Source: Carcharhinus amblyrhynchos (Eukaryota). Taken from it: a stretch of DNA of 64,000 nucleotides. The translations under genes and the position numbers were made by a program. The stretch spans positions 1,302,001-1,366,000 of the forward strand of contig OZ336903.1 of NCBI GenBank assembly GCA_965287045.1. The letters are read 5' to 3'. The stretch's first letter is position 1, and each line of letters starts with the position of its first letter. The notes beneath the pieces were generated by a model, which was not told where the DNA came from, did not search any database, and saw nothing but the letters and a program-made list of their open reading frames with translations. Shown here in pieces: positions 1-62,599 of this stretch.

Positions 1-28
1 GTCAAATATTAACTTGGAGGGCGATTAC

Positions 29-61
29 CTGATGGATCAGCCTGGCTGTTTCCTGGTTTGC
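29..61 (-). CDS. Exon 2 (end of leader, (C)[10 protein letters not shown]) of a paralogous SRCR receptor gene that runs off the left edge
   Basis: 33-nt phase 1-1 exon, tttcatttcag acceptor and CAG|gtaatc donor; near-identical to 36621-36653. Confidence 0.8.
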
Positions 62-861
62 CTGAAATGAAATTTTAAAAATTAGTCTTTGCTGGAACAC
101 GAGATGAATGAAACTGTCAAATCCATACATCACAAAATCAACAGCAAGGATCTGTGTTATTTCTTCACTCTATGATTTGTAAGCACTTGCTTTTTTTAAA
201 AAAAGTTTTATTCAAATTACCACATCCGTGATATTATGACTGAATATCGCGGCCTCATTCCTTTTTTTTGAATATATGTTTTAACCACATGTTACCGTGT
301 TCCCAAACAGGGATATTTTGTGTCAGTTAAATCTCCAAATCCACGTTAGCCTCTAGTTTGCATAGTAGAATCAACAGGGCAGCGATTCCTGTCTCTGGTT
401 GGGTTGCTGAAAATTTATAACTTGATCCAGAGAGTAACCATGATAAAGTTACTCGAATATCTCTGCACCACCGTCCATAATACGGACAGTGTGTCAGTTA
501 TTTCCAATGCAGACATTTCGTAGCCATCTTTATTAAAAATTCACAAACAGTATCGCACAACATTCACTTATGTTGTAATCATTGCCAGAATTGTGGGATA
601 ACATTTCAATATTTACTCAAAATTTCACAATTTCAATGGTCCAACTGGAATTTCTGGACCCTCTTCACCCATTCCGTCTTTCTATTTTTTGCTCCACTTT
701 TCAGCGTTCAGTAATTCTCCCACTGAATCAGTGACCCATTTCAAAAACACAGAATAAAGAAAAGTACAGCGCAGAAACAGACCCTTCGGTCCATCAATCC
801 CCTGTCCATCATGATGCCCGACTATGAAAAAAAAATCATGCTGTCTTATTTCCATCTGTAT

Positions 862-1285
862 CGGGGGCTGGTGGCCGGGTTCCGCGCGCGTGGGGACGGC
901 CTCGGCTGGGGTCTTGGGTTCATGTCGCGCTGTCTGTGCCCCCCATGACTTGCCTGGGCTTGTGGGGTCTCGCTGGCTGTCCTGTCTGGGGACGGTGCAC
1001 GTCTCTTTGGCCTGTGCTTGGTGCTGTCTCCACTCACGTTGTCTGTGCCTTTGGGACTTGGGTAGCGGGTTGGCTGTGGGGGCTTGCATTCTGGTCGGTG
1101 TTCTGTGAACTGTGTGTGGCTTTGTGTCCCCTTCTCTGGCCGGGGCCTTCCGCGCGCCCGGCGGGGGAGCGGCGTTTCCGAGGGCTTGTGGGTTTGCTGT
1201 CGAGTGGACCTGTTGGACTTTGGCCTGGTCTTGTGAGACTTCTTACTGTGTTTACCCCAGTCCAACGCCAGCATCTCTACGTCAG
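862..1285 (+). mobile_element. Penelope-like element 3' fragment (GIY-YIG C-terminus and pLTR), A>G hypermutated
   Basis: 3' end matches the pLTR copies at 8248-8371 and 43960-44038; reverting G>A gives a KLIAKFRTHEDGLNRDLGFMSHY-like GIY-YIG tail (family consensus recalled, not searched); absent from the paralogous site near 37445. Confidence 0.75.
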
Positions 1286-2335
1286 ATGTGCAGGTTAGGT
1301 GGATTGGCCGCGCTAAATTGTGACTTAGTGTCCAAACACGTGTAGGTTAGATGGATTGGCCATGCTAAATTGCCCCTTAGTGTCCAAAGATGTGCAGGTT
1401 CGGTGGATTGGCTGTGCTAAATTGCCCCTTAATGTCCTGGGATGTGTCGGTTAGGTGGATTGGCCATGCTAAATTGCCCCTTAGTGTCCTGGGATGTGCA
1501 GGTTAGGTGGATTGGCCATGCTAAATTGTCCCTTAGTGTCCAAAGATGTGTAGGTTAGGTGGATTGGCCATGATAAATTGTCCTTTAGTGTCCTGGGATG
1601 TGTAGGTTAGGGTGGATTGGCCATGCTAAATTGTCCCTTAGTGTCCAAAGATGTGTAGGTTAGGTGGATTGGCCATGCTAAATTGCCCCTTAGTGTCCCA
1701 AAGATGTGTAGGTTAGGTGGATTGGCCATGCTAACTTGCCCCTTAGTGTCCAAAGATGTGTAGGTTAGGTGGATTGGCCATGCTAAATTGTCCCTTAGTG
1801 TCCGAAGATGTGTAGGTTAGGTGGATTGGCCATGCTAAATTGCCCCTTAGTGTCCCAAAGATGTGTAGGTTAGGTGGATTGGCCATGCTAAATTGTCCCT
1901 TAGTGTCCGAAGATGTGTAGGTTAGGGTGGATTGGCCATGCTAAATTGCCCCTTAGTGTCCAAAGATGTGTAGGTTAGGTGGATTGGCCATGCTAAATTG
2001 TCCCTCAGTGTCCAAAGATGTGCAGGCTAGGTGGATTGGCCATGCTAAATTGTCCCTTAGTGTCCAAAGATGTGCAGGTTCGGTGCATTGGCCATGCTAA
2101 ATTGTCCCTTAGTGTCCTGGGATGTGTAGGTTAGGTGGATTGGCCATGATAAATTGCCCCTTAGTGTCCTGGGGTGTGTAGGTTAGGTGGATTCGTCATG
2201 ATAAATTGTCCTTTCGTGCTAAGGGGATGAGCAGAGGTTAGAGGCGGGTTTAGGACCTGAGTGGGATTGTGGTTGGTGTAGACTTGATGGGCCAAATGGC
2301 CTCCTTCTGCACTGTAAGATTCTATGATTCTATCC
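1285..2335 (+). repeat. About 18 x 52-bp tandem array derived from the internal part of an HE1-type shark SINE, followed by the SINE 3' tail
   Basis: Unit gatgtgtaggttaggtggattggccatgctaaattgccccttagtgtccaaa over 1285-2215; tail ...ccttctgcactgtaagattctatgattctat; single-unit SINE at 53700-53960. Confidence 0.9.
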
Positions 2336-2529
2336 ATTTCCTCCTTATTCATGCACCCATCCAGATGCCACTTAAATGTTGCTAATGTGTCAAATTCCAT
2401 CACCTCCACTGGCAGCGCTTTCCAGGCATGCACTACATTCTGAGCTTCTTTCACACATCTTCCTTCAACTTTCCCCCTCTCACCTGAAGCCTGTGCCCCC
2501 TTTCCTCCTGCAACAGGTCACTAATGACA

Positions 2530-2945
2530 CGAACAAGCAATGGAATAGAAGGTGCTGGTCAGCAGCCTGATTTGCTGGAAATCCCAGCCATCACCTGAAT
2601 CATTTGTGTACCGTGTGGATGATACACAGCAACAAATGACCAAAACTCATTCGCAGTTCATACCAAACCCGCCATTCCTACCACCTAGAAGTACAAGGAC
2701 AGACCTACAGCAATGCCCTGAATTGCTCATTCACTTCTAAGTCGGTCAACATGCTGAGTTTGGATAATATCGGGGTTGCTTCATTCTCATGTGAACTCAA
2801 TCCCTAATCTCACTCTGCCTGCACCAGTGCATCATGTACTGCAGCCAGGCGGCAAAAAAGGCTCAGAGATCAATTCCTGATGACATCTGGGTGCAGACAA
2901 TAAATGCTGCCATTGCCAGGGACGTTGACTTCACAAGAATTTGCA
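2530..2945 (+). mobile_element. Degenerate LINE 3' fragment (paralogous copy about 37660-38060)
   Basis: Resembles a common elasmobranch LINE 3' end (...ccaaacccg...ctaccacctagaag...caataaatgctg). Confidence 0.5.
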
Positions 2946-5019
2946 TAATAATAACAAGAGTGTAAAGGCCTTGGCTGAATGTGGGGTATTAACATTTTTT
3001 TTGAAACAGATACAGAGACATGGAAATTTTGCTACTTTAAGATGTAGGTCCATTTAAAGACAACAACACTCCATTAGCATAAAACAGTAAGGCAGCAAAT
3101 GCATCACCCCGTGACCGACAATTCCATCGATCAATAATATTTTAACTTAAACTATGAGACCTAACACGTAATAAATAAATGTCGATGTAATGAGTGGAAT
3201 TAATTAGATAACATCGTATTCGGAGTTGGAAACCACCGTTAAACACTGGGACCGTGTAGCTCGCAGCAGGAAGGACAGATTATGAGTCGCTAGTGGAAGT
3301 ATAATTTTCAAATGTATGGTCACACCAAATTAACACTTGTAAGATATCACATTTAGAATGTAAGCGGACACTTATCCAATCTTTGCGAGACAGGGTGATA
3401 TTTTTCTGGGGTCTGGAGGCCGAAGCTAACGGTACAAAATGGCTCAAAACATTTTACAAGGAAACGGTGGAGTTTGTCAATCTAGAATGAGTGACGAGTT
3501 TTCATAGCTCAGTATAAAGAACAGAAAGTTGAGTGGATACTGAGAGTGTCTGGGAAGAGGGTGATAAGGATCCAGTGATTGATACACAAAGCTGATATTA
3601 GCGTATGGTTTAGAAAGCTTTGTTGTGATTTCTAAAGCTCATTGTTCCAAATAGCAATCAGAAAATCTAATGCTGCCAATTTGCGGAAGAAGACGGATTT
3701 TTAATTTCCCTATTATTTCGCCGCTGCAACTGATATGAAGTATATTGGTTAATATGCCAGTTAAAGCAATGTTTGTCCCACTTAGATTTTAACTTTTCGA
3801 TATTTACAGCCGTGAACACTACTCCAACTCAAAATTTTTTGTTTAACATATGGCAGTTCACTGTCCCACAGGACGACCACACAGCTCCTCCACTGAGAAA
3901 TATCTATCCCAAATCTGCGTACGGATTCTATTGATAGTAACTATAAATTTTACTGGGATTCTGCAAGCGGTTAATTCACGTAGATTGCATTCGGCAATCT
4001 CTGCTATTCAGACAGTGGCGGCGATCTACACCCAGACTGCGCCGTTCAGCTAGAATTTCAATTCATGTCTGTTCCATCTGTACAACAGACCAAGTGCACT
4101 ATTTAATTCTATCTGCTGCCGTATCTGAGTTAGATTACGTGGTAAATCTAAATTTCTTATTCATTTGCTGCTTTGTGGAGACGAATGAACTAAAAATGCA
4201 AATTTGCTCAAAGCATATTCCAATGAGTTTCTACAAGTTAAGCCAACGATTCCAACTCTCACTTCATAACTGCGAGCTAACGGGCGATTCAGTAGCAACA
4301 AAACGTCAAATTTTAATGAGATGGGTTTATTGGGCCTAGGATTTATTACATTGCAACATTACATTTGTTTCTTTTAGAAGACATGTTCCTTCAAGCAAGT
4401 GCAAAGTCCAAAAAGTTTTTTTTTTCAGATTTTATTTCGCGGACTCTCGGTCCTTTCCTGTGTGAAGTGTTTGATAACAGGAATGGGGCAACTTTCTATC
4501 AGTTAACCAACATTTTCAGTGAAATTCGGACTAATGAATATAACCAAAGAGGCACGTTGGGAACCGAGAGAAAATGAACCAACTGAACAACTTAAACAAC
4601 AACCAAGTCAACAACTTAAATCGGAACAAAACTACTTGGCCTGTGGAAGGAGATGAAAGAACATGTCTCGAACTGCCACAGAAAACGGCATGAGAAACAG
4701 AGAACATGAAACCCTGGCATACCTCTTGAGAAATAAAAATAATTAAAACCTGAAACAAATAACTGCATAGAAATATTAATTTAACACATTCTGGTAATAT
4801 TCCGGGAGGAGACATGAGGCAGTTGGGCAACACAGGTCAGCAGGCAAATCATGCATATTTAGCAAATTATATTATCAACATAACAAGATCTGTATTTTCT
4901 TCATATTAATGAAATTAATTAATGCCACAGACCTAGCCCAACACTCTGAAGCTGAGGCACCGATTTTAAACAATTTGTTTGTTTTATCTCTGCACGGGGT
5001 TCAGACGGAAAATGTAATG

Positions 5020-5360
5020 AGAAATAGAACACAGAACAGAGAACATTACAGTACAGGCCCTTCGGCCTTCGATGTTGTGCCGATCAGTGGAACCAATCTA
5101 ATGACCCTCTAACCTCAACTATTCCAATGTTATCCATATGCCTATCCACTGACCATTTGAACGCCCTTAAAGTTGGCGAGTCCACAACTGCTGCAGGCAG
5201 GGCATTCCACGTCCCTACTACCCTCTGAGCACAGAACCTACCTCTGACAACCGTCCGATAATTACCAACCCTCAATTTAATGCTATGTCCCCTCGTGTTA
5301 GTCATCACCATCCGAGGAAAAAGGCTCTCACTGTCCACCTTATCCCATCCTCTGATTAAG
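5020..5360 (-). mobile_element. CR1 LINE 3' end, specific to copy 1
   Basis: ORF 5084-5338 has TRGHSIKL...RVVGTWNALP...AFKWSVDRHM (CR1 ORF2 C-terminus); absent near 40150 in the paralog. Confidence 0.85.
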
Positions 5361-6351
5361 GTCAGATTACAATATCAAGAGAAGCATGGATGAATGGTCA
5401 TCGCCAAAATTCCTGCATTTTTAAACATAGTGAGTTGGCTTCCACTCAAACTCATTTTCAGCAGATTCTAACAGCCACTGCTCTCACTTGTACCAACACA
5501 AATCAAGTAGTCCAAATAGAGGTTTTACAGTAAAATGTTGCCATGCGCGCGTAAAGCATTTCCATTCAATTTTGTGTTTAAATCTCAGCTTGCCTTAAGT
5601 CTCGGCCGAGAAATTAATACATGCATTAATCAGGTGTTCTAAAGTCTAAATACATTTGAAAGGAAATAAGTTATAAAAAGAATCAGGGAATCTAAATTAT
5701 TCACCAACTGAAACTTCCTTTCCTTAAAATCCTAATTCCAATACACACTCATAACAACGAAGGATGTATTTGAATATGCAAGAGCCTTTTCCCTAACTGG
5801 AGCGGAGAATCCAAAACATTGCTGGAAAAAAAAATATAAGCTTCCAGATTTTGATTTGATCGTCCATTTTGATTTTCAACTCCAATTTATTGATTCTGCA
5901 CACCAATGTCAGGTAGACGGCGATCAAAAACAATTTTCATTGGACCTTTGTGGCCTCAGAGCAATATTCGGCAGAAGTGTTAGGCCCCTGGTCCAAACTG
6001 ACTGTGCCGGGTGGAATAAAACCAGTTCAGTCTAACCCCACTAGCCTGTTCTTGGCTCCTTTGTGCGTTACAATACTTCAGACGCAGAAGCAAGTATGTT
6101 TTCAATGTGCTGAGCACTTCTTCATCCTCCAGCTTTTCAGACACTGAACTCGCCTCCTCTCATTGTAAATTGATGTACATTAATATCCTATTACCTCCAG
6201 ATGACACTTATTATTCAAATTATCAACTTTCCCTTACATCAGTCACCAACATTTTTATTATGAAAGCTCAATATATCTGCAAATATGTTAACATTTTATG
6301 TCAATGAATTATCAATAGACATCGGGATACTTTCAATCAATAATAACTCAC

Positions 6352-6397
6352 AGTTGAGAAGCTGCAATGCAATTAGAGTCAGGAAGGAGCGCAGCAT
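6352..6397 (-). CDS. Exon 1 (signal peptide [15 protein letters not shown]) of the paralogous SRCR receptor gene
   Basis: ATG at 6397, 46 nt, T|gtgagt donor; identical to 41157-41202; joins in frame to 29-61. Confidence 0.8.
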
Positions 6398-6650
6398 CGT
6401 CCCGACTGTCGGTTACTGCGATCAGAATTGACTATTCACCGAGTTTTGTACACCGGTACCGGGCTGTCCTTCCAACACTTGCTGGAACACCAAACGCTCC
6501 AGGAATGAATTCTTTGTTCAGGAAATAATGTTTCCTCCCCTCTGACCAATTGATCCTCCCATGTGTGAAATGGTATTTGCGGTTGATAAAAGATACCAAT
6601 GACAGTTCTATCCACCTCCTTGCCCTGTGCGGCTAATGAGGCCTACATTT

Positions 6651-6670
6651 TTGATAAGGAAATGAGTCAC
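6651..6670. promoter_or_regulatory. Candidate GATA/ETS/AP-1 composite site about 260 bp upstream of SRCR exon 1
   Basis: tgataa-ggaa-atgagtca; conserved at 41458-41476. Confidence 0.35.
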
Positions 6671-7929
6671 TAACCCAGCATCGGATTATCGAATCATCAT
6701 ATCTTACAGCACAGACACAGACGAGTGTAGGAAATGCAATTGGTAAATGTTTGTAAATCATATTAAGCCTGGCTTGGACTGGATTATTTAGAATTATTTT
6801 TGTTCTGTTTTACCACTTACGGGCAATTTCCGAGGAAGAGTTGAAGGCCGTGGAGAGAATTAGGGTTAAAATTCCCAGGTTAAACCTGGGACTGCTGTGA
6901 TGTGGAGAAATTGCATAAATTGCATGTCAGATCCTGTCACTTTCCTCAAGAAATCTGTGAGTGAGGGTTCTCACCGACAAGTCCAATCCAATCGGCTGTT
7001 TAAGGCTCCTACAGAGCCCGAATACAGCCTGTATTCACAACCTGATTTTCACATCTTCACAAAGGAAAAGTGAAGGGATTTCACTCCAACAGTAACTCAA
7101 GCAAGAAGTTCAAATCTGTAACATCTAGAATTTTTTTTTCCCCGAGTGAAAACAGACCTTTTGCTCCTTGCTCTGAGAACAACCTCCAAAGTTTTTACTG
7201 TCTTCTATTCAGAGAACAATATTCTCGAAATACAGAAAGCCTAATTCATGTATAATTTTAATATGTAGCACCTCTATACGGAAATCTTAGATACAATGCT
7301 TCTGTTAAAAGACTGTTATTCTCTATTGGGACATAATTACTTTTTAAACATACTTTAGAAGCACCATTACATATCTGAGCGATTTTGCTGCCTCCGCCCA
7401 GTTTAGAGTGACAGAGTTCGGCGGGACTGTGCCGTTCAGAAATATTTCTTATCTGTTGGACAAATGTAATTTTATTTTCATGATCAAATTGACAGTTATT
7501 TGAGTGAATGTCTTTACAGGGCCGCGTTTAGAGAAGGGAGGCCCACGGACATATTTGTTCCATACAGGAAGAAATGATTCCTGAGAAGCTGAGCAATTGG
7601 TGTTGAGTTATACTCTGTCACCCCGAAGCAGCTCACTGTCTGTTCAGAATCAGGACATTCGCTGCGCGTTTTCCTGTGTTGCTGAACAGACAGGAAACAC
7701 CTGGCCTTGTGGTCAGGTCTCTGCTCGCATGTTAGTCGCTGCTAGACTTTAACATTGACAGATTGCAATTGGGCATTCGAACATGGGACATGTAAAACTT
7801 TAAGTACATTCATGAATTCACCAGCAGCATATGACAGAATGGCATCAACAAATACTCCTGATTATCCGGGGCCTCCAGGAATTGAATGTCGCTGAACATT
7901 TTGACATTTCAGTTGTGTTCAAATGCCTG

Positions 7930-9375
7930 ACTGGCTCAATCTGCCTATTAACATTCAGTGCCACAGGCCTGGCCACTTTCACTGTGTCCTTTGAGATTCA
8001 GTGTCTCAGGCTTGGCTGAGGTCACTCTGTTCTTTCAGATTCAGTGTCACATTTCTGGCTGCATTTGAACTGTTGTTTGAAATTCAAGATCTCTGTCCTT
8101 TGAGACTGAGTGTCACAGTCCTGCGCTGTTCACTCTTCCTTTCAGTTTTAGTGTCACAGGTCTGGCTGGGTTTACTGTGTCCTTTGAGATTCATTGTCAC
8201 AGGCCTGGCTGGGTTCATTCTGTCATTTGAAATTCAATGTCACTGGCCTGACGAAGGGGTGAACCCCAAAAACTTGTGGGTTTACTATCAAATAACTGGT
8301 TGGACTTTAACCTGGTGTTGTGAGACTTCTTACTGTGTTCACCCCAGTTCAACACTGGCATTTCCACATCACAGATTCACTCTGTCCATTGAGATTCAGT
8401 GTCACGGGCCTGGCTGGATACACTGAGTTCTTTGAGATTCCTTGTCACAGCCCTGCCGGGGTTCACTCTGTCATTTGAGATTCAGAGACCTGGCTGGGTT
8501 GGAACTGTTATTTGAGATTCAACGCCTGAGGTCTGACTGGGGTCACTCTGTCCTTTCAGATTCAGTGTCACAATCTTGGTATCCTTTCAGTCTGAGTGTC
8601 ACAGGCCTGGCTGGATTCACTCTGTCCTTTGAAATTCAGTTTCACAGACCTGGCTGTGTCTAATCTGTCCTTTGAGATTCAATGTCACAGACAAAATTGG
8701 GTTCAATGCATACTTACATATTCGGTGTCACAGACCTGGCTGCATACACTGTGTCCTTTGAAATTGAGTGTCACAGGCCTGGCTGGGTTCATCTGTTATT
8801 TGAGATTCAGTGTCACAGGCCTGACTAATTCACACTGTCTTTCACAAACAGTGTCACAGGCCTGTCTGGATTTGTTCTGTGCTTTGGGATTCAGTGTCAG
8901 AGGCGTGTCTGAGTTTACTTTGCCCTTTCAGATTCAATGTCAGAGGCCTGGCTTTGTTGGAACTGTTATTCAAGATTCAAGCTCTGAGGCCTGGCAGAGT
9001 TCACATCTACCCTATGAGATCCTACCTCACAGGCCTGGCTGTGTTCACTCTGTCCTTTCAGATTTGGTGTCTCAGGCGTGGCTGGGTTGGAACTGTTTTT
9101 TAAGTTTCATTGTCTAAGGCCTCACTATGTTCACTCTGTCCCTTTGAGATTCTGTGTCACAGGCCTGGTTGGAGTCACACTGTCCTTTAAGATTCAGTGT
9201 CAAAGACGTTGCTAGGTTCACTCTGTACTTTGAGATATAGAATCACATTCCTGGCAGGGCTCACTGTGCTCTGTGAAATTCAGTGTCACAGGCCTGGCTG
9301 CATTCTCGCTGTTCTTTCAGACACAGTGTCATAGGCCTGGCTGGGTTCAATTGTTGTTGAGTTTCAGTGTCCTAA
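7930..9375. repeat. 43-bp minisatellite (roughly 30 degenerate units)
   Basis: Unit gagattcagtgtcacaggcctggctgggttcactctgtccttt; interrupted by a Penelope pLTR at 8248-8371. Confidence 0.9.
8248..8371 (+). mobile_element. Penelope-like pLTR fragment with a degenerate hammerhead-like core
   Basis: ctgacga-aggggtgaacccc-aaaa ... gttggactttaacctggtgttgtgagacttcttactgtg. Confidence 0.65.
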
Positions 9376-9379
9376 CATT

Positions 9380-10560
9380 GGCTGGAGATGGAGGGAGTGA
9401 GGTGGCTAATTGAGTGCAGTGAGGCAGCATCAACTGTAGATGGAGACAGTCAGGGACTAGTTCAGTTCAGTGAGATAGCATCACCAGCAGATGGGCAGAG
9501 TGAGGGGAAACTGAGTGCATTGCAGCAGCACCACCAGCAGATTGGGACAGTGAGTATTCTCACTGGGTGCAATAAGTCAAAGATACCAGGAGATGGAGAC
9601 AGAGAGGAGGTAACTGAGAGGACATGGACAGATTGCTGGAAAGAATGATTGTTGATTTGTTGATCGCAGTGAGGATAATAACAGTGTTTGGGGGACACAG
9701 AGAGATGAATGAAAAGTAGAAGACTGAGGAGAACAGCAGGATGTTACAGGACACAGGTGGATTGGTGAGACATAGTTAGCAGTATGGATAAAAGCAGGGC
9801 TTGGGATGCCAGACAGATTGCTGAAATGTAGTAAATAATGATGATTATCATCAAATTTGGGAGGACACAGAGAGATGGGAGAAAGGCAATAGCAGTGAGA
9901 GTGAGAACAGGAATTGGCAGGACACAGGTAGAATGGTAAAATGTTGTAATGAGTGGGGATAAAGCTAGGAATCTGGAAGGCAGTCAGTTTCCTTTAACGC
10001 AACAAAGAATCAGGATAACAAGAACATTTGTTTGGACAGGTAGACTGGGAAGTGCAATAATCATGGACAATATAGGCAGGATTTGGGAGCAGACAGCCAA
10101 TTGTAATTATCACTAAATAATTTTGTTAGCACGCCGACGGAATGGTGAAGGATTGCAAATGTTGGGGATATATCCAGGATTTCTGTGGACACTGACTGAT
10201 TGCTGTAAAGCAGTTAGAAGTGAGAACATCAGCAGGCTTCTGGAGAACACGGATTAGTGTCGAAATGTTGTAAACAGTGTGGGCAACAGTAGGTTTCAGG
10301 GGGATACAGACAGAATGGTGAAATGTAGTAAACAGTGTGGGTAACAGCAATGTTTTGGAGAACACACACGGATGGGTGAAGTATTGCAAAGAGTGATGGT
10401 AGAGGCAAGATTTAGTAAGCAATGGCAGATTGGTGTAATATAATAAAGAGTGAGGAAAACAACAGGGTTTGGAAGGATGCAGCAAATGGATGAAGTGTGT
10501 TAATCTGTCCGGATAGCAGAGGATTTGTGTCTCTGGGGTAGTGCTGGAATGAAGCATGGT
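9380..10560. repeat. Degenerate purine-rich minisatellites (about 45-55-bp units)
   Basis: Repeated tgagtgcagtgagacagcatcaccagcagatggagac and gaggataacagcaggatttgggaggacacagacagattggtgaaatg motifs; paralog at 45620-46990. Confidence 0.65.
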
Positions 10561-10659
10561 GCTGAATTGAGTAGTTGGGGAAATACGGTTGTGAATGTGA
10601 CGATCCAGAGCATAAAAAAGGAACAGAAATGTATCAAACCGTGTATCTAACTGTCATAA

Positions 10660-11061
10660 TCTTTATTTAATAGTATAAGAATGGAAGCTGCTACAAAATG
10701 GAATTCGAATAGATGTGACAATAATAAGCACCCAATTTTGAATTGTAGTCCCGGCTCTGCTCCATAATGTGATGTGATATAAGAGCTTTAATATGGACAG
10801 TGAAATACCGGATATACATTCTGTTCTGTTTCTCATCGAACAGGATGCAGACTCACTCAAACTGAGAAGAATTTGCAAATTCATAAAAAAAAGAAGGAAT
10901 GAGCGACTGATTCAGAAACTACAATACCGATACCTGGAGTTGAAGGACATTCCACACAGTGATATTTGTGGAAAAGTTAAGGGATCTCCCCTTTGATGTA
11001 ATGCAGAGTCATATATCTGAAGACACCACATCCTGGATTTGGATTTGTTGATGACTATTGC
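10660..11061 (-). pseudogene. Orphan SRCR-gene terminal exon ((G)NSHQQIQIQDVVSSDI*) with 3'UTR and polyA signal
   Basis: Homologous to 20763-21166 including the tttcag acceptor, TGA and AATAAA (+ strand tttatt near 10662); no upstream exons found before the gap. Confidence 0.6.
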
Positions 11062-12635
11062 CTGAAACTATAAAATAAATAGAGTGAGAATTACAACAAA
11101 TCCCACATCCAGCTAAACGCATCACATGTGCTGTATTTTATTTTACAATATTCCAGTCCAACCAGCTGTTTATTTCTCTCTAAAACACACTGCACCTTCT
11201 CTCTGATCCTTTCATTGTAATTCACCACTGGAAATACTGCAGGGTTTGGATCTTGCTGGATGGTAAGGAGATGATAAGGTGAGTTTTGGACAGCTACATT
11301 TCTAGCGGCAGCGATTGGGAAATGTTAGGATGGTGTGGAAATTCCTGGGACGTGAGAGATGACGAGACTGTGCCCATTTCCTCTTAATCTTCAAGAGGCA
11401 AAATTCCAAGTTCCGGGAGTTAAAATCCCGCTCATTGAGATCGCGCTTTGACCATATTGTAGATCAGAATTTAAGCAAAGATATATGTTTTATTTTAAGC
11501 CCTCTTCAATAGAGCATTTGGTGAACAGTTAGAAATGTAGCAGGTTTGGAGAAAGGGGTGGCTGGGACAAGGACGAAGGGAAGGTCTGTGGTAGACATGA
11601 GAGTTTGAATGAGAGAAAAGTGAATCCCCCCCAGAGCCAAAGGGAATGGAGATGGAGAAAAAAAAACAAATGAACAGAAACTGGGCCTGGAGCAGGGGCG
11701 GTGCTGAAACAAAATGGACTCACAGTTTACTTTCTCAAACTGTTTGACTGGATATTAAGTCCAGAAAGCTGTCAGGTGTGGAGGGTTTGGGTAAGTGGGA
11801 GGATTTCCCCTGGACCTGCTCCAGGCCCTGGTTTAAACTGTCATCTGTAGATCCAGGATGGGTGTGGCTGGCGGGGGAGGCAGGGTTCCCTCTGGCTGAT
11901 CTGCAGTGGTCTTGTCAGTGCCCAGTTCGATCTGATCTGTGCAGCCCAACACACTGGAAAATGCGTGAAAGGAAATGAAGATTAGAAATCTAACTAATGT
12001 GTCAACTCCTTCAGAGGGTCACACACTGTATTCTGACAAAGTGAACTGGATTACACTGAATGGGAAGTCATGTAATGTAACCCTCACAGGCTTCATGAAT
12101 GAAGTACATTTTTTTCGGGGGGTGGGGGGGTGGGGGGGATTAGCTTCAGACTCCAGCCTGGTTGTTTCAATAAACAGGAGCTGATGTCTATCTGTGTGTA
12201 TGTGTGTCTGTTTCCCTGGGTACGGTTCCCTGAGAGTTTAAAATTCTGCATCTCTCTCTCCCTCTCTCTCTGTGGAGCTGCTGGTTAAAGACACATTGAC
12301 AATATTTATCTGACAGAAACTCCCCTCCCCCATTCAGTGCTTCTGATTTCAAAAACGTTTAGACGTTTTTTTGCAGCTCTGATCTGTGGTGACTCAATAA
12401 ACATTAAGCAGAGAGCACACACATTCACACAAATAGACAGGAAACAACAGAGATTGGCTTGGAAATAAGAAGTGTAAATATAAATGCAGCAACAAAGAAC
12501 TTTGCAAGAAAGTATTTGAGTTCAGGCAACTTAAGCAAAACGTGAACTTTGCAAGAATCAGCAAAACCTGAAGCCGCTGGAATGCTGGATGAGCAAGTTA
12601 TACAATCCACAGTCAGACCTGATCTCTCTCTGGAC

Positions 12636-12845
12636 AGTAAGAAATCTCACAACACCAGGTTAAATTCCAACAGGTTATTTGGTGGGAAAAGCCACTAGCT
12701 TTCGGACCACTGCTTCTTGGTCAGGTGAATGGATTTCAGTTCCCAAACACGGCATATAAAGGCACAAACTCAATTTATAAACTGATGTTGTGAAACGTCT
12801 CACTGTGTTTACCCCAGTCTAACGCCGACACCTCCACATCACCAC
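12636..12845. mobile_element. Penelope-like pLTR in inverted arrangement, specific to copy 1
   Basis: Reverse-complement pLTR at 12636-12780 followed by a forward pLTR end (...ccccagtctaacgccgacacctccacatca); absent near 48960. Confidence 0.65.
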
Positions 12846-12908
12846 ATCATCTCTGTCTGGGCAGGGCTGCTGGTTACTTTCAATCCATTTTCCCCTCATC
12901 CCCGAGTG

Positions 12909-12909
12909 A

Positions 12910-12978
<69 letters not shown>

Positions 12979-12999
12979 GACAGAGAGAGGTAGAGAGAG
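12909..12999. repeat. (GA)n/(GACA)n microsatellite
   Basis: Read directly from the sequence. Confidence 0.95.
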
Positions 13000-13244
13000 A
13001 GCCTTGGGATAAACAATTTGCCTGGTGCTCAGCAACGCACATAGACACAGCACCCCCACCCCCAACCCCTCAGAGACAGGTTGGTGTTGGACTGGGCTTT
13101 ACCTGAAGTAGGTGGGCTCAGGTGAGATGCAGGAGATGTGGTTGGATGGGGGTTGATTGGGGAGTTGTGGGCAGTTAGTGTGATTCAGTGAGGGTATAAA
13201 AAGTCTGGGGATCAATTGTTCTGTTTCTGTGCACATGAGTTGAT

Positions 13245-14991: not shown

Positions 14992-15208
14992 ATTTGCATT
15001 TTATTATGAATCTCCGGTTGAATCATTTACCCGATTTTTTTTTTAAGTTTGTGATCAGTAACCTGCAGAAGAGAACACATTTAACACATTTAATCTCTGA
15101 TCACAGGAACTGTTTGTCTGTGCGCTGTTCTTCAGTAAGAAGCAACTTGGAGCGAAACCCCACATTATGTGAGTGAACAGCTTAATATTTAACACGTCTC
15201 AATATAAA
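14992..15208 (+). promoter_or_regulatory. Defensin-like gene A promoter: octamer ATTTGCAT (14992) and TATAAA (15203)
   Basis: Both motifs are conserved upstream of all three copies (56088/56289; 58643/58845); TATA lies 48 nt before the ATG. Confidence 0.55.
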
Positions 15209-47466: not shown

Positions 47467-49679
47467 CTGAAATTGTAAAATAAATAATGAAAAATGCAAC
47501 AAATTCCACAATTCACTAAAAACATCACATGCTGTTTTTTTTACAATATTCCAGTCCAACAGGCTGTTAATTTCTCTCTAAAACACACTGTACCTTCTCT
47601 CTGATCCTTTCATTATAACTCACCACTGGAAATACTGCAGGTTCTAGATCTTGCTGGATGGTAAGGAGTTGATAAGGAGAGTTTTAGACAACTACATTAC
47701 CAGGGGTAGCAATTGGGAAATGTTAGAATGGTGTGGAACTTCCTGGGACATGAGAGATGATGACACTGCACCCATTTCCTCTTCGTCCTCAAGGGACAAA
47801 TCTCCAAGTTCAGGGAAGTTAACATCCCTATCATTGAGATCATGCTTTGACCACATTGTAGGTCAGAATTTAAGAAAATATAATGGTTGTCTTTTTTTTA
47901 TTCCTCTTGATTAGAGCATTTAGTGAACAGTTAGAAATGTAACAGGTTTGGAGAAAAGGGTGGCTGGGACAAGGACTCAGGGAAGGTCTGCGATGGGCAG
48001 GAGAGAGAATGAGAGAAAAGTGAATCCCCCCGAGCCAAAGGAAATGGAGATGGAGAGGGAAAAGAAACAAAGGAAAAGAAGGTGTGCCTGGTTAAAACAA
48101 TCATCTGTAGATCCAGGATGAATAGGGCTGGAGGGGGAGGCAGGGTTCACTCTGGCTGATCTGCTGTGATCTTGTCCGTGCCCGGCTCGAACTGATCTGT
48201 GCAGCCCAACACACTGGAGAATGTTTGATAGGAAATGAAGATTAGAAATCTAACTAATGTGTCAACTCCTTTAGAGGGTCACACACTGTATTCTAACAAA
48301 CTGAACTGGATTACACTGAATGGGGAGTCATGTAATGTAACCCTCAGAGACTTCATAAATGAGGTGCATTTTTTAAGACGGATTGCAGGGGGTGGGGGGA
48401 GGACTCGGGGGGCGGGAGGGCAGCGGAATTAGATGCAGACTGTAGCCTGGTTGTTCCTATAAACAGGAGCCGATATGTATCTGTGTGTATGTGTGTCTGT
48501 GTCTCTGGGCACAGCTCCCAGAGAGTTTAAAATACTGCATCTCTCTCTCTCTCTCTCCCTCTCTCTCTCTCTGCAGAGCTGCTGCTTAAAGACACATTGA
48601 CAACATTTATCTGACGGAAACATCTCTCTCATTCGCTTCCTCTCCTCCCCCAATGAGTGCTTCTACTCTCAAAAAAGTCTAAACTGTTTTATTTTTTTCA
48701 GCTCTGATCTTTGGTGACTCATTCACCATTAAACACAGGACACACACATTCAAACACCGATACAGACAGAAACAGAGGGGTATTTTTTTGGAAATCAGGA
48801 CGTGAATTGTAAATGCAACAACAAATAACTTGCAAGAAATTGTTTGAGTTCAGGCAGCTTCAGCAAAAAATGAACTTTGCGAGAATCAGCAAAAGATGCA
48901 AACCTGTAACCGATGGAGTTTTGGATGAACAAATTGTACAATCGGCATTCAGGCCTGGTCTCTCCCTGCCTGGGCAAGGGTGCGAGTTACTTTAAACCCA
49001 TTTTCCCTCAGCTCCCAGTATTGGTGATGTGAAGGAAGAGCCTTGGGGTAAACTGTTTGCCTGGTGGTCAGTAAACTACCCACCAACCCCCCTCTCTCTC
49101 TCTCTGTCTTTCCCTCCCTGAAATTAAATTGTCACAATTCACATTGGTGTTTTCCTTCACATTTCATTGAAAGATGAAATATAGAGAGGAATGTCTAGGG
49201 AGAGAGAGAGGGTTGGGATGCCAGGATTGGTAAGAACATTGGAGAAACAGAGACAGGGAAATTCTAAACCCCCCCTCCAAATATATATTCCCGGGGAAAG
49301 AGAGAGAGCAACAAATAGAGTCACACAGCACAGAAACGGGCCACTGAGCCCACCAGGTCTCTGCTGGCCATCAAATCCCAATCTATCCTGCTCCCATTCC
49401 CCAGCACTTGCTGCAGGACCGACGATGCCTCAGCGATTAAAGTGCTTGAATTTACCCGACCCCGTTTCAACCATTTTGTTCCACCTTCGAACCAGATTGT
49501 GGCCCCTAAGCAATATTTTGTTTTTTTTTATGTGTTTTCACTGTTGCAGTGCGGAAAATGCCACAGGCCCAGTGTGTACACAGAAAGATGCCACATCAGC
49601 AGCAGTAATGTGAACCGAGATCAGATGGGACACAGTTCCTCCCATCACACCCTCACACTCTCATCTGCTGTGAGCCCCT

Positions 49680-53962: not shown

Positions 53963-56336
53963 TTCTGGGGGCTTAACTCCAGAGACAGGCCAGTGAATAA
54001 ACACAGGAGGCCCCAATGACGTTCGTACTTCTATCAGTCACCTCCCCCGCCCCCCTCTGTTTCTCCCTCTCCGTCTCTTCCACACTTCCCCAGATCGTTA
54101 TCTGTCCAATATTCCATCTCTGCTCCTGGCTCTCGATAACCTGTCCGGATATCTGCTCTGGTTTTCTATCTCAAGGTGAATCTGGATTGAAATTCTCTCT
54201 CTCTAAGTTTCTGTCAGATCTTTCAAAATAATAATCACAATCAAAAAAGAGAGGGGGCGAGGGCAAGAAAATCCACAATCCCATCCTGAAGAGGCTGCTG
54301 CACATTTTGTTGAACCATTGAATTCAGTCACTTCAACCCTGTTGGGGAATTAAGCGAATGTAAAAGTGTTCCTGAGATTAAGACAGTGAAGTGCGGCCTA
54401 ATTACAGAGGCTGCATTATTCCACAGGTAGAAAGAACAGATCCCCCTCCCTCCCCCCCAGTTAAACAGAACAATATTTTTTTCTTCCACATCCACAAACG
54501 CCAGCGCCCTGCCTAAAAACACAAGGAGGATTCTGGGACTGAGAACAATCCTTTCCCGCAGGCTCAGGAATTTGAATTTCAGCTCCCTCTCCCGCCCGAG
54601 TGCTTTATAGTGAGAGGGAGAAAGAGAGACTGGGAATGCTGCAATCAGGATCCACAGGGATTTGAACACTCCAGGAGGAAACAATTCACCCCCAGAGCCT
54701 CCGTCTCTTTCCCGCACCATCTCCACTGAGCCCCTGACATTTCCCAATCCTACTCTGTTCAACCTGTCAAGTGTGATTGATCCATAATGGAACCAATACA
54801 TCCATCGACGATTCCGCGAGATATTTTGAACCATCAGTGATACATTTTAGGCAGAATTTGCAACCCAATCTGCTCTGATATCGCTCATTGTGCAATTAAC
54901 TATGCGACAATGCATCAATGATTCAATGAAGAGAGTGTCAACGCCTGTTGTGAGCAGAAGCAGATGTATCTAATTTGAAATAATAACCTATTGATGGCCC
55001 AACAAGGAGAATACAACAGGTGCAGGACTGTGAAGGAAGTCAAAAATAATCAACGCAAATCATTGCCAATGACACCAGAGTCGATCTATATTTTGCAGTC
55101 CCGACTCACCCAAACATGAGTACGGGTTGGCAATTCAACAACCATCTGGGGGAGGAGGCTCCACAATGGTGTGACAGGCCCGCATGCGAATATAATGGAG
55201 GAGGCTAAATCATCGCAGATAATCTACAGGCAGAAATGTTAGTTTGATGTTTCACCTTAGTTTCATGTGTTCAGCATACCAGCCTTCAGCCATTTTACCC
55301 CCGTCCACGTGATATCAAGGAACGACTGAAGGTGCTGGAAAATGACCAGTCATTAATGCAGATTATCCAAAGCCAATAGTGTGGAGTTTGTGTTGTTTTC
55401 ACACAGACAGGTGATCCCACTGATCACAAATAAGAGGACTCATTTCTGGCAGTTAGCTAAAGTTCAACAGGCAGGGTAACGGCAGGGCACCAGGCACCAG
55501 AGGCAAATATTCAACACATTACCCACTGCTGCATTCAGAATTATTGAAACATCTGAATTGAAAGAGAATTTTGCATGATGAGGACAGAGAGAGTTGATAT
55601 CAGAGTAAGGTAGTGACAGGAGTGAGGGAAGAAAGAAACACATATTATGGAACACAGGAAAATAGGGAGGGAGAAAAATAACAAAAAAAATCCTGAACGC
55701 AGGTAGGGTAGTCAAGAATGGGGAAATAGTGCAATTAGAGATATGTAAGGGCACTAATGATAAAAACTGACGACTTTAATTTACATAACGCATTTTACAC
55801 ACTCAGAATATCCCCTAGAGAATCATTGCCAATGCTAAAACTGCCATCAATGAAATAACATCCAAAGTGTTGCAGGGAATTGAGCACAAACAAACATGGC
55901 ACGTATTACAAACTATCCGTTTATTTAATCTTTTCCAGTGGGTTTGTCAGTGAATAGCGATGTCTTAGCATAACGATTCCTCACAACAGACACACAATAT
56001 GTTGGAGAGTGGAAGATTAACCAACCACTACAACAATGACGAAAATAAGTGACAAAGTAACCAGTGGGCAAGTTAACCTTGCAAATTATTTGCATTTTAT
56101 TGAGTCTCCGGTTCAATCATTTACCCGATTTTCTTTTTTAAGTTTGTGATCAGTAACCTGTATCGGAGAACACATTTAATCTCTGATCACAGGAACTGTT
56201 TGTCTGTGAGCGGTTCTTCAGTGAGAAGCAACTTGGAACCAATCCCCACATTATGTGAGTGAACAGCTTAATATTTGACACGTCTCAATATAAAGAACTC
56301 CCATACTCAAGTCATCTCATTGCAACTCATTGGAAA

Positions 56337-57332
56337 ATGGGGAAAGCGCTGTGCATAGTATTTGGTGTCTTGCTGCTGGTGCAGGAAATTGCTGTCCACG
56401 ACGTACAATTCTACCCTACTGAAGAAGAAGGTCAGTGTATCTTATGGTTGCCAAAATACGGTTGTTCTTACTCTGCATTGTAACGCTTTTTTTTATATAC
56501 AACGTTCTATCACAAGTATATATCACTGGTTTGGTTCTCAGATCTGGCAAATGTCACCGCTTTATTCCTGCCAAAAATTGAATGATTTAATTTTACATTC
56601 AACAATGTTATTTAGCTTTCCTTTTGTCCTCCGTCCTATCCCCGCACCACCGCCGCACCGCCCCCCTCCCCCCGCAACCCACTCCACGATTTTCAGATCT
56701 TTATCTCCTAAATGGTTACCAGACCGAAAATTTTCAGAGAACTCTGCTCTCCAAAAATAGTCAGCCGAATCTCATCACTTCATCCAAGGTGAATTTACCT
56801 TCTCCTTCTTGGGCTCAAATTCTGGAGTTCCCTCACTGCCCCTCACTGACACTTGATTTCAAATCTTATCACATAATTAACTCCATAGTGCTTTACTGTA
56901 AGAAAGTCACGAATAAATCCAATCAGGTGTACAAACGAATAAATATTAAATATAAAGTGAAGGGAATTTATAACTCACTGTCACCAGCAATGATTTTTTT
57001 TGAATAATGAAGATCAATGTTGGATGAAGCTCATTGAGCACATTAAGGCGAATGGCAATTTTGTAAGATTGTATTTTTACAACCGCCCTCATCTGCATGT
57101 TACAAAACCGCCTCGGATTGCTGATGTTCTCACGTCGACCGTCTATTTCATCACCCATAAATGCAGACCAATAAATTCCTCTTTTGTTTTTGTTTCAGTG
57201 GCGAGGTTCGGATGCGTAATACTTGGTGGGATGTGCCAATATGAACCCTGCGCAACGGATCGGGTTCAACTGGCTTCTAAACTGTGTTGGTATGGCCGAC
57301 ACTGCTGCGCGGATCCAGCACTTTTTAAATGA
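56337..57332 (+). CDS. Beta-defensin-like gene B, join(56337..56430,57199..57332), 75 aa
   Basis: MGKALCIVFGVLLLVQEIAVHDVQFYPTEEE|VARFGCVILGGMCQYEPCATDRVQLASKLCWYGRHCCADPALFK*; splice sites intact, TATA at 56289, AATAAA at 57436. Confidence 0.85.
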
Positions 57333-58892
57333 AATATCTGAATTGTAATAGTTTCCTTAGCAACCAGCTTCAAATCGGCCGTCCTTTCATTGTGGCTGCA
57401 ACAGATCTCTGCATTTCAGAATTACAAACTATTTCAATAAAACTCACCGGACTGGTCACCGATAATTGTGCAGATCTGGTTTATTACTCTGGTTTCTCTA
57501 TTCCTGCATTAACACAAAGGGAAAATATATAAGAAAATGTCACACTGGGGACATAGATTCATTCAGTGAAGAAACGGCCTTCAGGCGACCACTTCTGCTC
57601 CATAAATATCGATCACTAATGGCAAAGTAAACATATTTCCGTGTACTTATCCCAGATTATTGAACATTAAAATCATTCAAGACCAATTCAACAACTATCT
57701 GGGGGAGGAGGCTCCACAGTGGTGTGACAGGCCCGCATGTGAATATAATGGAGGAGGTTCAATCATCGCAGATAATCTACAGGCAGAAATGTTGGTTTGA
57801 TGTTTCACATTAGTTTCATGTGTTCAGCATGCCAGTCTTCAGCTATTTTACACCCGTCCACGTGATATCAAGGAACGACTGAAGGTGCTGGAAAATGACC
57901 AGTCATTAATGCAGATTATCCAAAGCCAATAGTGTGGAGTTTGTGTTGTTTTCACACAAACAGCTGATCCCACAGATCACAAATAAGAGGGCTCATTTCT
58001 GGCAGTTAGCTGAAGTTCAACAGGCAGGGTAGCGGCAGGGCACCAGGCACCAGAGGCAAATATTCAACACATTACCCACTGCTGCATCCAGAATTATTGA
58101 TACATCTGGATTGAAAGAGAATTTTGTATGATGAGGACAGAGGGAGTTGATATCAGAGTAAGGTAGCGACATGGGTGAGGGAAGAAGGAAACATATATTA
58201 TGGAACACAGGAAAATAGGGAGATAGGAAAATAATAAAAAAAGAAATCTGAACGTAGGCAGGGCAGTCAAGAATGGGGAAATGGAACAATTAGAGATATG
58301 TAAAAGCACTACTGGTAAAAACTGACGACTTTAATTTGTATAACGCCTTTTACACACTCTGTATATCCCACAGAGAATCATTGCCAATGCGACAATTGCC
58401 ATCAATGAAATAAGATACAAAGTGTTGCAGGGAATACAGCAAAAACAAAAATGGCACATATTACAAACTATCGGGGTATTTAATCGTTTCCAGTGTGTTT
58501 GTCAATAAATAGCGATGTCTGAGCATAACGAATCCTCACAACAGATACACAATATGTTGGAGAGCGGAAGAATAAACAACCACTACAACAATGTCGAAAA
58601 TAAGTGACAAAGTTACCAGTGGACAAGTTAACCTCACAAATTATTTGCATTTTATGATGAGTCTCCGGTTGAATCATTTACCCGATTTTCTTTTTAAGTT
58701 TGTGATCAGTAACCTGCATAAGAGAACACATTTAATCTCTGATCGCAGGAACTGTTTGTCTGTGAGCTGTTCTTCAGTAAGAAGCAACTTGGAGCCAATC
58801 CCCACATTATGTGAGTGAACAGCTTAATATTTAACACGTCTCAATATAAAGAACTCCCATACTCAAGTCATCTCATTACAACTCATTGGAAA

Positions 58893-59876
58893 ATGAGGAA
58901 AGCGCTGTGTATAGTATTTGGTGTATTGCTGCTGTTGCAGGAAATTGCTGTCTCCGTCTACACTCCTGAAGAAGAAGGTCAGTTTATCTTATGGTTGCTA
59001 AAATACGGTTGTTCTTACTCTGCATTGTAACGCTTTTTTTAATACAATTTCCTACCACAAGTATCCATCACTTGTTTGGTTCTCAGATCTGGCAAATGTC
59101 GCCACTTTATTCCTGCCAAAATTTGAATGATTTAATTTTAAATTCAACAATGTTCTTTCGCTTTCTTTTTGTCCTTCGTCCTCCTTCCCCCTCGCCCCTC
59201 ACCCACCCCCCGCCGCCCGCCGACCCCCCTCCACGATCTTCACATTTTTATCTCCGAAAGGGTTACCAGACCCAATTTTTTCAGACAACTCTGCTCTCCA
59301 AAAATAACCAGCCGAGTCTCATCACTTCACCCAAGGGGAATTTACCTTCTCCTTCTTGGGCTCAAGTTCTGGAGTTCCCTCACTGCTCCTCACTGATACT
59401 TGATTTCAAATCTTATCACATAATTAACTCCATAGTGCATTATTATAAGAAAATCACTAATAAATCCAATCAGGTGTACAAACGAAGAAATATTAAATAT
59501 AAAGTGAAGGGAATTTATAACTCACTGTCACCAGCAATGATTTTTTTGAATAATGAAGGTAAATTTTAGAGGAAGCTCGTTGAGCACATTAAGGCGAAAG
59601 GCAATTTTGTAAGATTGTATTTTTACAACCGCCCTCATCTGCATGTAACAAAACCGCCTCGGATTGCTGATGTTCTCATGTCTACCGTCTATTTCATAAC
59701 CCACAAATGCAGACAAAAAAATCCTCTTTTGTTTTGTTTCAGTGGAAAGGTTCGGATGCGAATTATTTGGTGGGGTCTGCCAATATGATCCCTGCGCACC
59801 GGACCGGGTTCGACTGTTTTTTAATCTGTGTCGGAGTGGCCAACGCTGCTGCCTGGATCCAGCACTTTTCAAATGA
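58893..59876 (+). CDS. Beta-defensin-like gene C, join(58893..58977,59743..59876), 72 aa
   Basis: MRKALCIVFGVLLLLQEIAVSVYTPEEE|VERFGCELFGGVCQYDPCAPDRVRLFFNLCRSGQRCCLDPALFK*; splice sites intact, TATA at 58845, AATAAA at 59980. Confidence 0.85.
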
Positions 59877-62599
59877 AATATTTGAATTGTAATAGTTTCC
59901 TTAGCAACCAGCTTCAAATCGGCCGTCCTTTCATTGTGGCTGCAACAGATCTCTGCATTTCAGAATTATAAAATATATCAATAAAACTCACTGGACTGAT
60001 CACCGATTATTGTGCAGATGTGGTTTCTCATCCGGTTTCTCTATTCCTGCATTAACACAAAGGGAAAATATATACGGAAATGTCACACTGGGGACATAGA
60101 TTCATTCAGTGAAGAAACGGCCTTCAGTCGACCACTTCTGCTCCAGAAATATCGATCACTAAAGTAAACATATTTCTCTGTACTTACCCCATATTATTGA
60201 ATATTACAATAATTCAAGCCCATTCAAATCCGTTTTAAGCTTGGAAATTTTTTGACCTTGCCTACCTTCCCAGGCTGTTTATTCTAATTTCACATTACGT
60301 TTTGAGTGAAGAAGTTGCGTTTTCTCAAATCCCACCTGAATCTCGTGTCCCTCATACTAAAAGCATGCGCCTTCATTATTGACCGCTCAACTAAGGGAAC
60401 AGGTGTTTTTTATTCATCCTCTCTACACCCCTATAATCCTATCACCTAATTCATGCCTCCCTTAAAGTTATTTGCTCTAAACAGAGAAATATAGAAAACA
60501 GAAGCAAGATTTGCCCATTTGCTGTTTTGGACCTATCCTCGCAATCATCTTGATCACGGCTGTTCATCAAGAGGTACACCAAATTTATTACTCAAAACAC
60601 ACAACTGTTGGGCCCGACTACTTTTCTCGTTGTGAATTTCATACGCTCGTCATAGGCTCTGGGTGATTATTTTCAGCTCACCTCAGTTCTAAAAGTTTTA
60701 TCCTTTCTCTGAAAATTACGTAACCGTTTTCCACATCCAACCAATTGGAACATTCTTTGTGATTCTGCCCTGTCCAATCCCGTTGGAGTTTTATGCGTTT
60801 CTACAAATCTCCTCTCACTCTCCTAACCACCAATAAAAACAGTCCTCACCGAGGAGTATCTGCTCATATGACAGACCTGCCACCCCAGGAATCAGCCTGG
60901 TAAACCTTCGCCGTACTCCCTCTATATCAAGGGCATCCTTCCTCAGGTAAGGATACAGAATTCAGGACATGGCCTCAAAAACGCCCTGCACAATGTTAAT
61001 GAAACATCTCCATTGTTAGACTCAAATCCTCTTGCTATTAAGTCCAACATACCATTTCCCTCTGTTACTGTCTGCTGTAGCTGCGAGCTTCCTTTCAGAT
61101 AAATAATTTAAAGAAAATTAAATTCAATCCTTTAAAAAAAAAGAAGCAATGCCAACTCACTTGTTCCACTGCTCCATCCCAGGCAGCATTCTGGTAAATG
61201 TCCTCTGTACAGCCTCCAGTGTTACCACATATTTCCGGTGGTGAGGTGACCAGAATTGCACACAGTATTCCAGCTCTCATTCGCCATTCCCTCATTTTGT
61301 TTCTCCTCCAGCAGTGATCTTGTCTCACTTATCAGAGAGAAATCAATCTGTCACTGCTCTGCCATTCTAACCATCCAATCATTATCAGCCTTTAAACAAT
61401 AAACACTATCCAAAGCATAGTGTCATCTGCAAACGTGTTAATTGTTCTCCCGTACCACATTACTATCCCTGTTGTTTATGAATATAATAAACTAGAAACG
61501 TTCCAGTGCTGATCATTATAACTTTGGATACCGGCATGCCGTCCATCGAACAGCCTCATAACATAATACTTTGAGTCCCATTACTAAGCCAGTTTCTAAT
61601 CCAGCTCACCAAGTTTCTCCAAATTACACCTGGTTTAGCCTTTTCAATCAATCTCCCAAGTCGGAGCTTGCCAAATATTTTGCAAAGTTCCACAAAACTA
61701 TAAGAACTGAACTTTCCTTGTCCACACAAAAAAAAACGACCAAAATTCTTCGGCATGACATCCATCTGACAAAACCATACTGGATATTCATAATTAACTG
61801 ATGTCTTTCTAAGTGAATATTCATCTTTTAAACAAAGTACATTTTGGAAGTTCGAAATGGCAGAACTCTGAGAAACATTAAAAGATGAATCCAGGACTGC
61901 AAGCCAACAGTTTCCTGAAAGTGGCAGCAGGAGAGGAACACTTGGCCAAGAAAATACGTGTCATGCCAGCCTTTATCTGTCGGTGTCTGGAGTATAAGAA
62001 TGTTGCAGCTAGTTTGAACTTTAATCAGATATGGAACACAGAGTACAGTTCTGTTTGGCACACGGAAGGATGTGATGGATTTGGATAGGGTACAGAAAAC
62101 ATTTTACCAGTTATCTGCTTTGGATGGTATTAGCTGGGAGGAGAGTTTGGACAGAGATTGTTCGATTTCAGTTGAACTTTGGAGGATTAGTTATCTGATA
62201 GAACTTTGCAAAATTAAGAGAGTCGTGGATAAAATGGAGAGTCGAAGTCGTTTTCCAGGGGGAAAGAAAAACATCAATCATTAGGGTACCGAAGTTGAAG
62301 GCAAAATGGTGAATGCTTGAAGGAAATGTATCAGGTAATTTCTTTACACGGGGGAGGGGGAGAGGGTAAGTTCTTGAATGTGTGGTCAGTGGAGGTTGGA
62401 GGAACAGATTCAATAACTACGTTAATGAGGAGTCTTGACAGTTACAGGAATAGAACAAAGAAGAAAGAATAAAGAACAAGAAACAGCCCGGGAAACAGGC
62501 CCTTCGGCCCAACGAGCCCGCGCCGCCATTTTAACATTACCAGTTCCCCGTCCACCCATGGCCCTTATCTATTGTTTACGGCATTACTTTAGGGAAACT

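Follow-up and report, generated by a model that had tools for sequence, protein, structure and literature searches.

Probable passive co-amplification of WC1/CD163-like receptor genes and defensin-like genes in a mixed immune-gene cluster of a shark

Are a receptor gene and the defensin-like genes that recur beside it multiplied as one functional unit, or are they carried along in the same duplicated blocks? The question is raised by a stretch of 64,000 nucleotides of the shark Carcharhinus amblyrhynchos (assembly GCA_965287045.1, contig OZ336903.1, hereafter G000 and C34). This stretch, C34:1302001-1366000, is called the window; it lies close to an end of its contig, which is 22.3 Mb long, in a genome of 2.9 Gb. 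It contains a scavenger receptor cysteine-rich (SRCR) gene on the minus strand and three defensin-like genes on the plus strand, and a first-pass annotation proposed that both had been amplified together as one tandem cassette, a sensor-plus-effector module. Our answer is different: the window probably consists of two adjacent units of about 44 kb belonging to a 2 Mb mixed immune-gene cluster, in which SRCR genes and defensins were co-amplified passively, by direct and inverted segmental duplication. The gene identities first assigned, WC1/CD163-like for the receptor and defensin-like for the peptides, held up on the evidence of domains, cysteine spacing, tree and fold.

Two blocks recur in the window, as the annotation had noticed. 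Block A, found at 1..13030 and at 36593..49070, aligns over 10.7 kb with 80.7% identity; block B, the defensin locus, found at 13430..19022 and at 54520..62564, aligns over 5.2 kb with 90.0% identity, and the defensin part of its second copy is doubled by an internal duplication of 2.55 kb. Both spacers between A and B contain short N stretches that are uninformative. A unit of 37-41 kb had been proposed; the recurrence stands, and its length has to be revised. The offset between copies is 35-37 kb for block A and 41-44 kb for block B, and when the left flank is included, a direct repeat of 43-45 kb appears, C34:1276649-1321022 against 1321670-1364564, with 86.8% identity. Each copy of it holds a transmembrane (TM) exon, a leader exon and a defensin. 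The first copy of block A is the 5' region of an SRCR gene whose body was predicted to the left of position 1: it is there, on the minus strand, with 8 domains, at C34 1285-1301 kb. Another SRCR gene, predicted beyond position 64000, also exists, on the plus strand, but as part of an inverted unit made of a G-protein-coupled receptor (GPCR) open reading frame, two minus-strand defensins and the SRCR gene; no third direct unit was found in the annotated right flank on C34. The two units of the window are not sister copies: their leaders belong to two separate clades, each with support 1.0, and the closest relative of each window defensin is elsewhere in the cluster.

How far does the pairing extend? 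We surveyed C34 from 142001 to 1766000 without gaps, together with 72001-142000, 1766001-1786000, 1990001-2100000 and control stretches; the gene counts refer to a region of 1.62 Mb, the whole cluster extending over about 2 Mb. This region contains 22 SRCR genes, each with 6-9 domains and a TM exon, 18 copies of defensin exon 2, and one remnant of a defensin exon 1. In three of the 22 genes the reading frame of an SRCR exon is broken. Domain 1 has been duplicated too, the 22 genes holding 32 copies of it, and the 33-nt leader exon 2 has 31 copies. A 23rd SRCR gene, at 2.04 Mb, has a GPCR gene upstream and no defensin there; in the interval 1786001-1990000, which was not itself read, genome-wide searches found no defensin and no close SRCR domain 3. 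Interleaved with these genes, between 144 kb and 2.07 Mb, are at least 37 intronless GPCR loci of the 7tm_1 family, 32 of them in one piece (L121:2631-3533 is an example); they may be of the type labeled 'GPR139-like'. The alternation of SRCR and defensin genes that was expected in the flanks is thus found in part: both are present across the cluster, but many copies have no partner, and GPCR genes stand among them.

The duplications themselves were compared as pairwise chains of at least 18 kb, which are not independent of each other. There are 142 such chains, 13 without shared gene marks and 129 with them, the latter 82-94% identical. Ninety-five share SRCR marks only, 15 share defensin and SRCR marks, 19 share GPCR and SRCR marks (2 chains are in both of these classes), and 2 share defensin and GPCR marks; 66 are direct and 63 inverted, and many of the longest are tail-to-tail SRCR pairs without a defensin. 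Co-duplication of the SRCR 5' region with defensins is thus real in several places, since 15 chains carry both. A single tandem cassette is not what the cluster contains: half of the duplications are inverted, 95 of the 129 chains are SRCR only, and a divergent defensin lies at most 19 kb upstream of six of the 22 SRCR genes, three more having one at 28-52 kb with GPCR genes between. The remaining 13 have no complete defensin of their own, one of them having just the exon-1 remnant, and three of the 18 defensins lack an SRCR gene as partner.

The tail-to-tail pairing fares no better as a repeated unit. Defensin gene A and the SRCR gene do converge about 4.4 kb apart in the window, as first described, their polyA signals at 16385 (+) and 20768 (-) being separated by 4.38 kb. 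However, the breakpoint at 19022..19027, between the defensin 3' flank and the SRCR 3' flank, is spanned by one match out of 21, the window itself: the junction is unique to this copy. Each family is also found without the other. No defensin was found in 60 kb sampled at C34 8.56-8.62 Mb, more than one repeat unit of a second SRCR array, and the 110 kb around the defensins of contigs C49 and C200 yielded no SRCR exon, nor did four other defensin loci of 10 kb.

The history that we propose would begin with one old rearrangement that set a defensin 6-16 kb upstream of an SRCR gene, the two facing away from each other, head to head. Unequal recombination would then have multiplied stretches tens of kb long, together with GPCR genes and immunoglobulin (Ig) exons; later deletion and shuffling would have eroded the SRCR-defensin pairs, and the two families may each have diversified on their own.

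Several observations weigh against so passive a history. The head-to-head link recurs: for 15 of the 18 defensins the nearest SRCR leader on the 5' side is divergent, and for 11 it lies within 19 kb. In the window, the spacers measure 8.9 kb and 15.1 kb from ATG to ATG. The defensins at 1387k and 1514k are sisters and their leaders are in one clade, a case of co-descent. Pooled ratios of nonsynonymous to synonymous rates (dN/dS) are elevated in both products, 1.28 (0.86-1.88) for SRCR domain 1 and 1.43 (0.84-2.75) for defensin exon 2, with intervals that include 1 and pairs that are not independent; for the other SRCR domains they are 0.33-0.66. An argument for passive duplication, the lack of correlation between leader distances and the distances of the adjacent defensins (rho -0.01, p 0.52, 9 pairs), loses weight because the correlation within genes, between a leader and its own TM region, taken as a control, is weak too (rho 0.22, p 0.053); shuffling is general, and the distance test says little. 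Finally, the cluster is mapped in one genome. The recurrent link, the 15 mixed chains, the elevated ratios and the TATA boxes, intact in 14 of the 14 defensin models checked, all speak for a co-regulated module, in which enhancers in the spacer of 6-16 kb would serve both an SRCR gene and the defensin divergent from it, selection would keep and multiply the pair, and cells expressing the receptor would secrete the peptide. Such a module is nevertheless unlikely, given that 13 of the 22 SRCR genes have no complete defensin, that GPCR genes travel with SRCR parts as often as defensins do (19 chains against 15), and that the spacer varies by deletion and contains an orphan exon and a minisatellite. 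One may go further and imagine an ancient array of WC1/CD163c type where some of the receptors are coupled head-to-head, through shared enhancers, to defensins of their own; the choice of a receptor variant would arm the matching peptide, and the two would co-diversify under pathogen pressure. We regard this scenario as distinctly doubtful.

Another doubt concerns function, and is compatible with passive co-duplication: the peptides might have a beta-defensin fold while most are not antimicrobial, the anionic majority being chemotactic, reproductive or receptor ligands, in which case 'effector' would be the wrong label. The net charge of the exon-2 peptide is negative (-2 to -5) in 11 of the 18 copies and positive in 7; against the PF00711 (Defensin_beta) cut-off of 21 bits, the exon 2s of the three window genes yield 17.1 bits, no hit and 10 bits; and the same fold occurs in peptides that are not antimicrobial. 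However, the net charge of the window's own three peptides is positive (+3, +2 and +1), and anionic fish beta-defensins with a proregion are known in flounder, according to the available part of PMC8231796, which makes this view quite improbable in our eyes. As for the repeat being an assembly artefact, a false duplication of haplotypes, one could invoke the frameshift in a run of G in the window SRCR gene, which may be a sequencing indel, and the fact that no read or contig was seen bridging the unit junction. False duplication is unlikely because the two units of the window are not fresh sister copies: they differ by 10-19%, and the nearest relatives of each are not in the window but in other parts of the cluster. 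The identities of all 129 chains, flanks surveyed without N gaps, and a matching expansion in Mustelus asterias (16 records at 90% clustering) leave this explanation hardly credible.

We now turn to the receptor. The window gene, of WC1/CD163c-like type, occupies 20768..41202 on the minus strand, as delimited by splice sites, domain matches and a spliced contig of a related organism. Two leader exons (41202-41157 and 36653-36621, in the second copy of block A) are followed by seven SRCR exons (35652 to ~28110), an interdomain exon (27969-27943), the TM exon (27776-27660) and four tail exons: three cytoplasmic ones at 26659-26552, with the motif YEEI, 23484-23374 and 22811-22680, with YDDA, and a last exon that starts at 21166, with the polyA signal at 20768. 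Splice sites are canonical throughout. The seven domains, all above the PF00530 cut-off, form a tandem of group B SRCR domains. The contig of the related organism, 1034 nt long and from read run X22, guessed to be RNA, contains domain 7, exon 22811-22680 and the last exon, spliced together at the sites that had been predicted. The window copy does not have an intact open reading frame: domain 6 carries a one-base frameshift at 28690..28700, either a pseudogene allele or an assembly indel in the G run, and the contigs of all four read runs have one extra base at this site. The first copy of block A contains the leader of the next gene, also on the minus strand, with exon 1 (ATG and signal peptide) at 6352..6397 and the 33-nt exon 2 at 29..61, which has AG/GT sites and matches the N-terminus of protein P0103.

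The domains were placed in a tree with those of bovine WC1, 64 rows over only 97 columns, using the WC1 domain labels given in the accessible part of PMC2906472. Domain 1 groups with WC1 domain a (95/83), which is also its best WC1 match; the corresponding groups are b/c for domains 2-3 (98/98), e for domain 6 (98/96) and d' for domain 7 (93/89). The tree gives no place to domain 5, whose best BLAST match is d/d'. Domain 4, with six cysteines, has a position like that of domain n, in a tree built without a CD163c-alpha reference. The YEEI of the tail fits Y-(Q/E)-(D/C/E)-(I/L), a cytoplasmic motif that the same part of PMC2906472 gives as common to WC1 and CD163c-alpha. Together with the TM exon, these features suggest a type I membrane receptor, either a pattern-recognition receptor or a co-receptor, with a variable N-terminal domain and a tyrosine motif. 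By analogy with WC1, it likely binds microbes through its variable first domain and signals through YEEI.

The likeness to bovine WC1 and to CD163c-alpha/SCART thus extends to group B domains encoded one per exon, a TM region, the YEEI motif, a multigene array and a first domain that is the most variable. The differences are that the shark gene has 7 domains (6-9 across the cluster) where WC1 has 11, that the six-cysteine domain 4 has no counterpart in WC1, and that the shark genes are mixed with defensin genes. The order of the domains, combined with YEEI, resembles the hybrid CD163 genes of chicken as far as these are covered by the portion of PMC2906472 at hand; finding this hybrid order in a shark would date the receptor type before the split between cartilaginous and bony vertebrates. 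Of the 120 SRCR relatives listed, one from Mustelus asterias has the highest identity, 78% over domain 2. Proteins of this species (XP_078056836.1 and its cluster) have the same 7 domains, leader, TM region and tail, and are 70-89% identical per domain; they bear the automatic name 'DMBT1-like' although they are membrane-bound with a tail of WC1 type.

Orphan copies of the last coding SRCR exon are present on the minus strand of the window at 11009..11061, with a polyA signal at 10667, and at 47420..47466, with a polyA signal at 47089; upstream tail exons were searched for at the first of these, and none was found. The SRCR start codon is some 5-6 kb downstream of them, and across the cluster 11 copies of block A have such an exon ahead of the leader. 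We take these exons for a trace left by an old rearrangement. The second SRCR array, at G000:C34:8.52-8.80 Mb, is a direct tandem of six or seven units with a spacing of about 45 kb, approximately 60% identical to domain 3 of the window gene.

The defensin-like genes are all on the plus strand: gene A at 15251..16281 (exons 15251-15344 and 16148-16281, 75 amino acids, TATA box at 15202, polyA signal at 16385), gene B at 56337..57332 (exons 56337-56430 and 57199-57332, 75 amino acids) and gene C at 58893..59876 (exons 58893-58977 and 59743-59876, 72 amino acids). In each, a TATA box precedes a first exon that encodes a hydrophobic leader; a GT-AG intron of phase 1 separates it from a second exon with six cysteines, and a polyA signal follows. 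This plan, with the signal in exon 1 and the mature peptide in exon 2, is read from the DNA sequence alone, and the products would be secreted peptides with an acidic proregion. The cysteine spacing is C-x6-C-x4-C-x11-C-x5-CC, and six cysteines in beta-defensin spacing are found in the three window genes and in 17 of the 18 copies of the cluster. Sixteen of the 18 combine the six cysteines with a GT donor; of the other two, one uses a GC donor and the second is missing a cysteine.

The identification as beta-defensins draws on several lines, each weak, yet agreeing. All 12 sequence matches in PDB are weak, and every one is human beta-defensin 1; the leads from the Atlas (0.81 and 0.76) are clusters of beta-defensins. 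A structure model (pLDDT 69) with a short helix and a beta-sheet has as nearest structures AvBD3 (Z 4.0) and human beta-defensin 2 (Z 3.9), at a root-mean-square deviation of 1.6, and the top seven structural matches, with Z of merely 3.2-4.0, are six beta-defensins and one big-defensin domain. No homologue of the C34 defensins was found in the protein collections searched: one search gave no candidate, another gave three of which none scored, and the one match among 1.84 billion proteins (P0135) is a spurious tandem repeat; such a blank does not amount to absence. No depth was found over gene A in run X22, which is no evidence either way. The spacing, the signal peptide and the predicted fold are those of vertebrate beta-defensins (PF00711), and the two coding exons are as in mammals, teleosts having three (PMC8231796, available part); the acidic proregion, the mostly negative net charge and the scores under the Pfam cut-off set the shark peptides apart.

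Elsewhere in the genome, a second beta-defensin-like lineage, about 40% identical to the C34 peptides, has 23 copies, on G000 contigs C49, C56, C36, C82, C86, C200, C400, C491, C651 and C9 (for example L137:4952-5071); some equal-scoring copies on small contigs may be haplotype duplicates. A third type has three copies, at G000:C49:722193, C56:1149345 and C31:25900039, two of which pass the Pfam cut-off, the third being borderline. The total is 44 defensin-like loci (18 + 23 + 3) in three lineages, some of those on unplaced contigs being possible haplotype duplicates.

Clusters of WC1 and of beta-defensins that originated by segmental duplication are known in cattle, as separate blocks, according to the accessible part of PMC2796684; what appears to be new, from the sequence, is their interleaving, in a shark. 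We found no report of shark defensin genes, of shark WC1-like genes or of such interleaving in the open-access library searched, judged mostly by title and start of abstract and with most subscription journals outside its scope; a 2019 review names no shark defensin in its available part (PMC6795676). Even if the association is passive hitch-hiking, 44 beta-defensin-like loci of three lineages in a shark are useful to comparative immunology, and the cluster offers a built-in contrast for co-regulation: a divergent defensin lies close to six receptor genes, and 13 have none. The chicken chromosome 16 region described in the accessible part of PMC4988538 is also alike, a small chromosome on which WC1/CD163-like SRCR genes cluster with intronless GPCR genes, there olfactory receptors; that part does not mention defensins. 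The shark GPCR genes carry the 7tm_1 label and are not shown to be olfactory receptors. Linkage to the major histocompatibility complex (MHC), as on the chicken chromosome, is ruled out: all 82 MHC class I matches are on C9 and not on C34.

Other elements of the cluster have relatives far outside it. The GPCR family yields 3453 first-look candidates genome-wide, on many other contigs, among them the Ig-rich C39. Seven Ig C1-set exons, 96-100% alike, are found on C34 at 667493, 705843, 1523401, 1763250, 1821298, 2003908 and 2074803; they are up to 97% identical to many copies on C39, and near-copies lie at the ends of many chromosomes. Just past the last SRCR gene, at 2.094 Mb (L173:3651-5012), an NLR-like locus is present as NACHT and NLRC4_HD2 frames in pieces. 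The cluster is broken up by two simple-repeat-rich stretches, C34 ~665-794 kb and 1523-1721 kb, which are duplicates of each other (up to 97%). In the window, a 43-bp minisatellite occupies 44385..45619 of the second copy of block A and has its counterpart at about 7950-9371 in the first. A 52-bp tandem repeat, with 18 copies and 90% matches, lies at 1284-2218, in the first copy of block A only, and a related stretch is found at 53775-53958.

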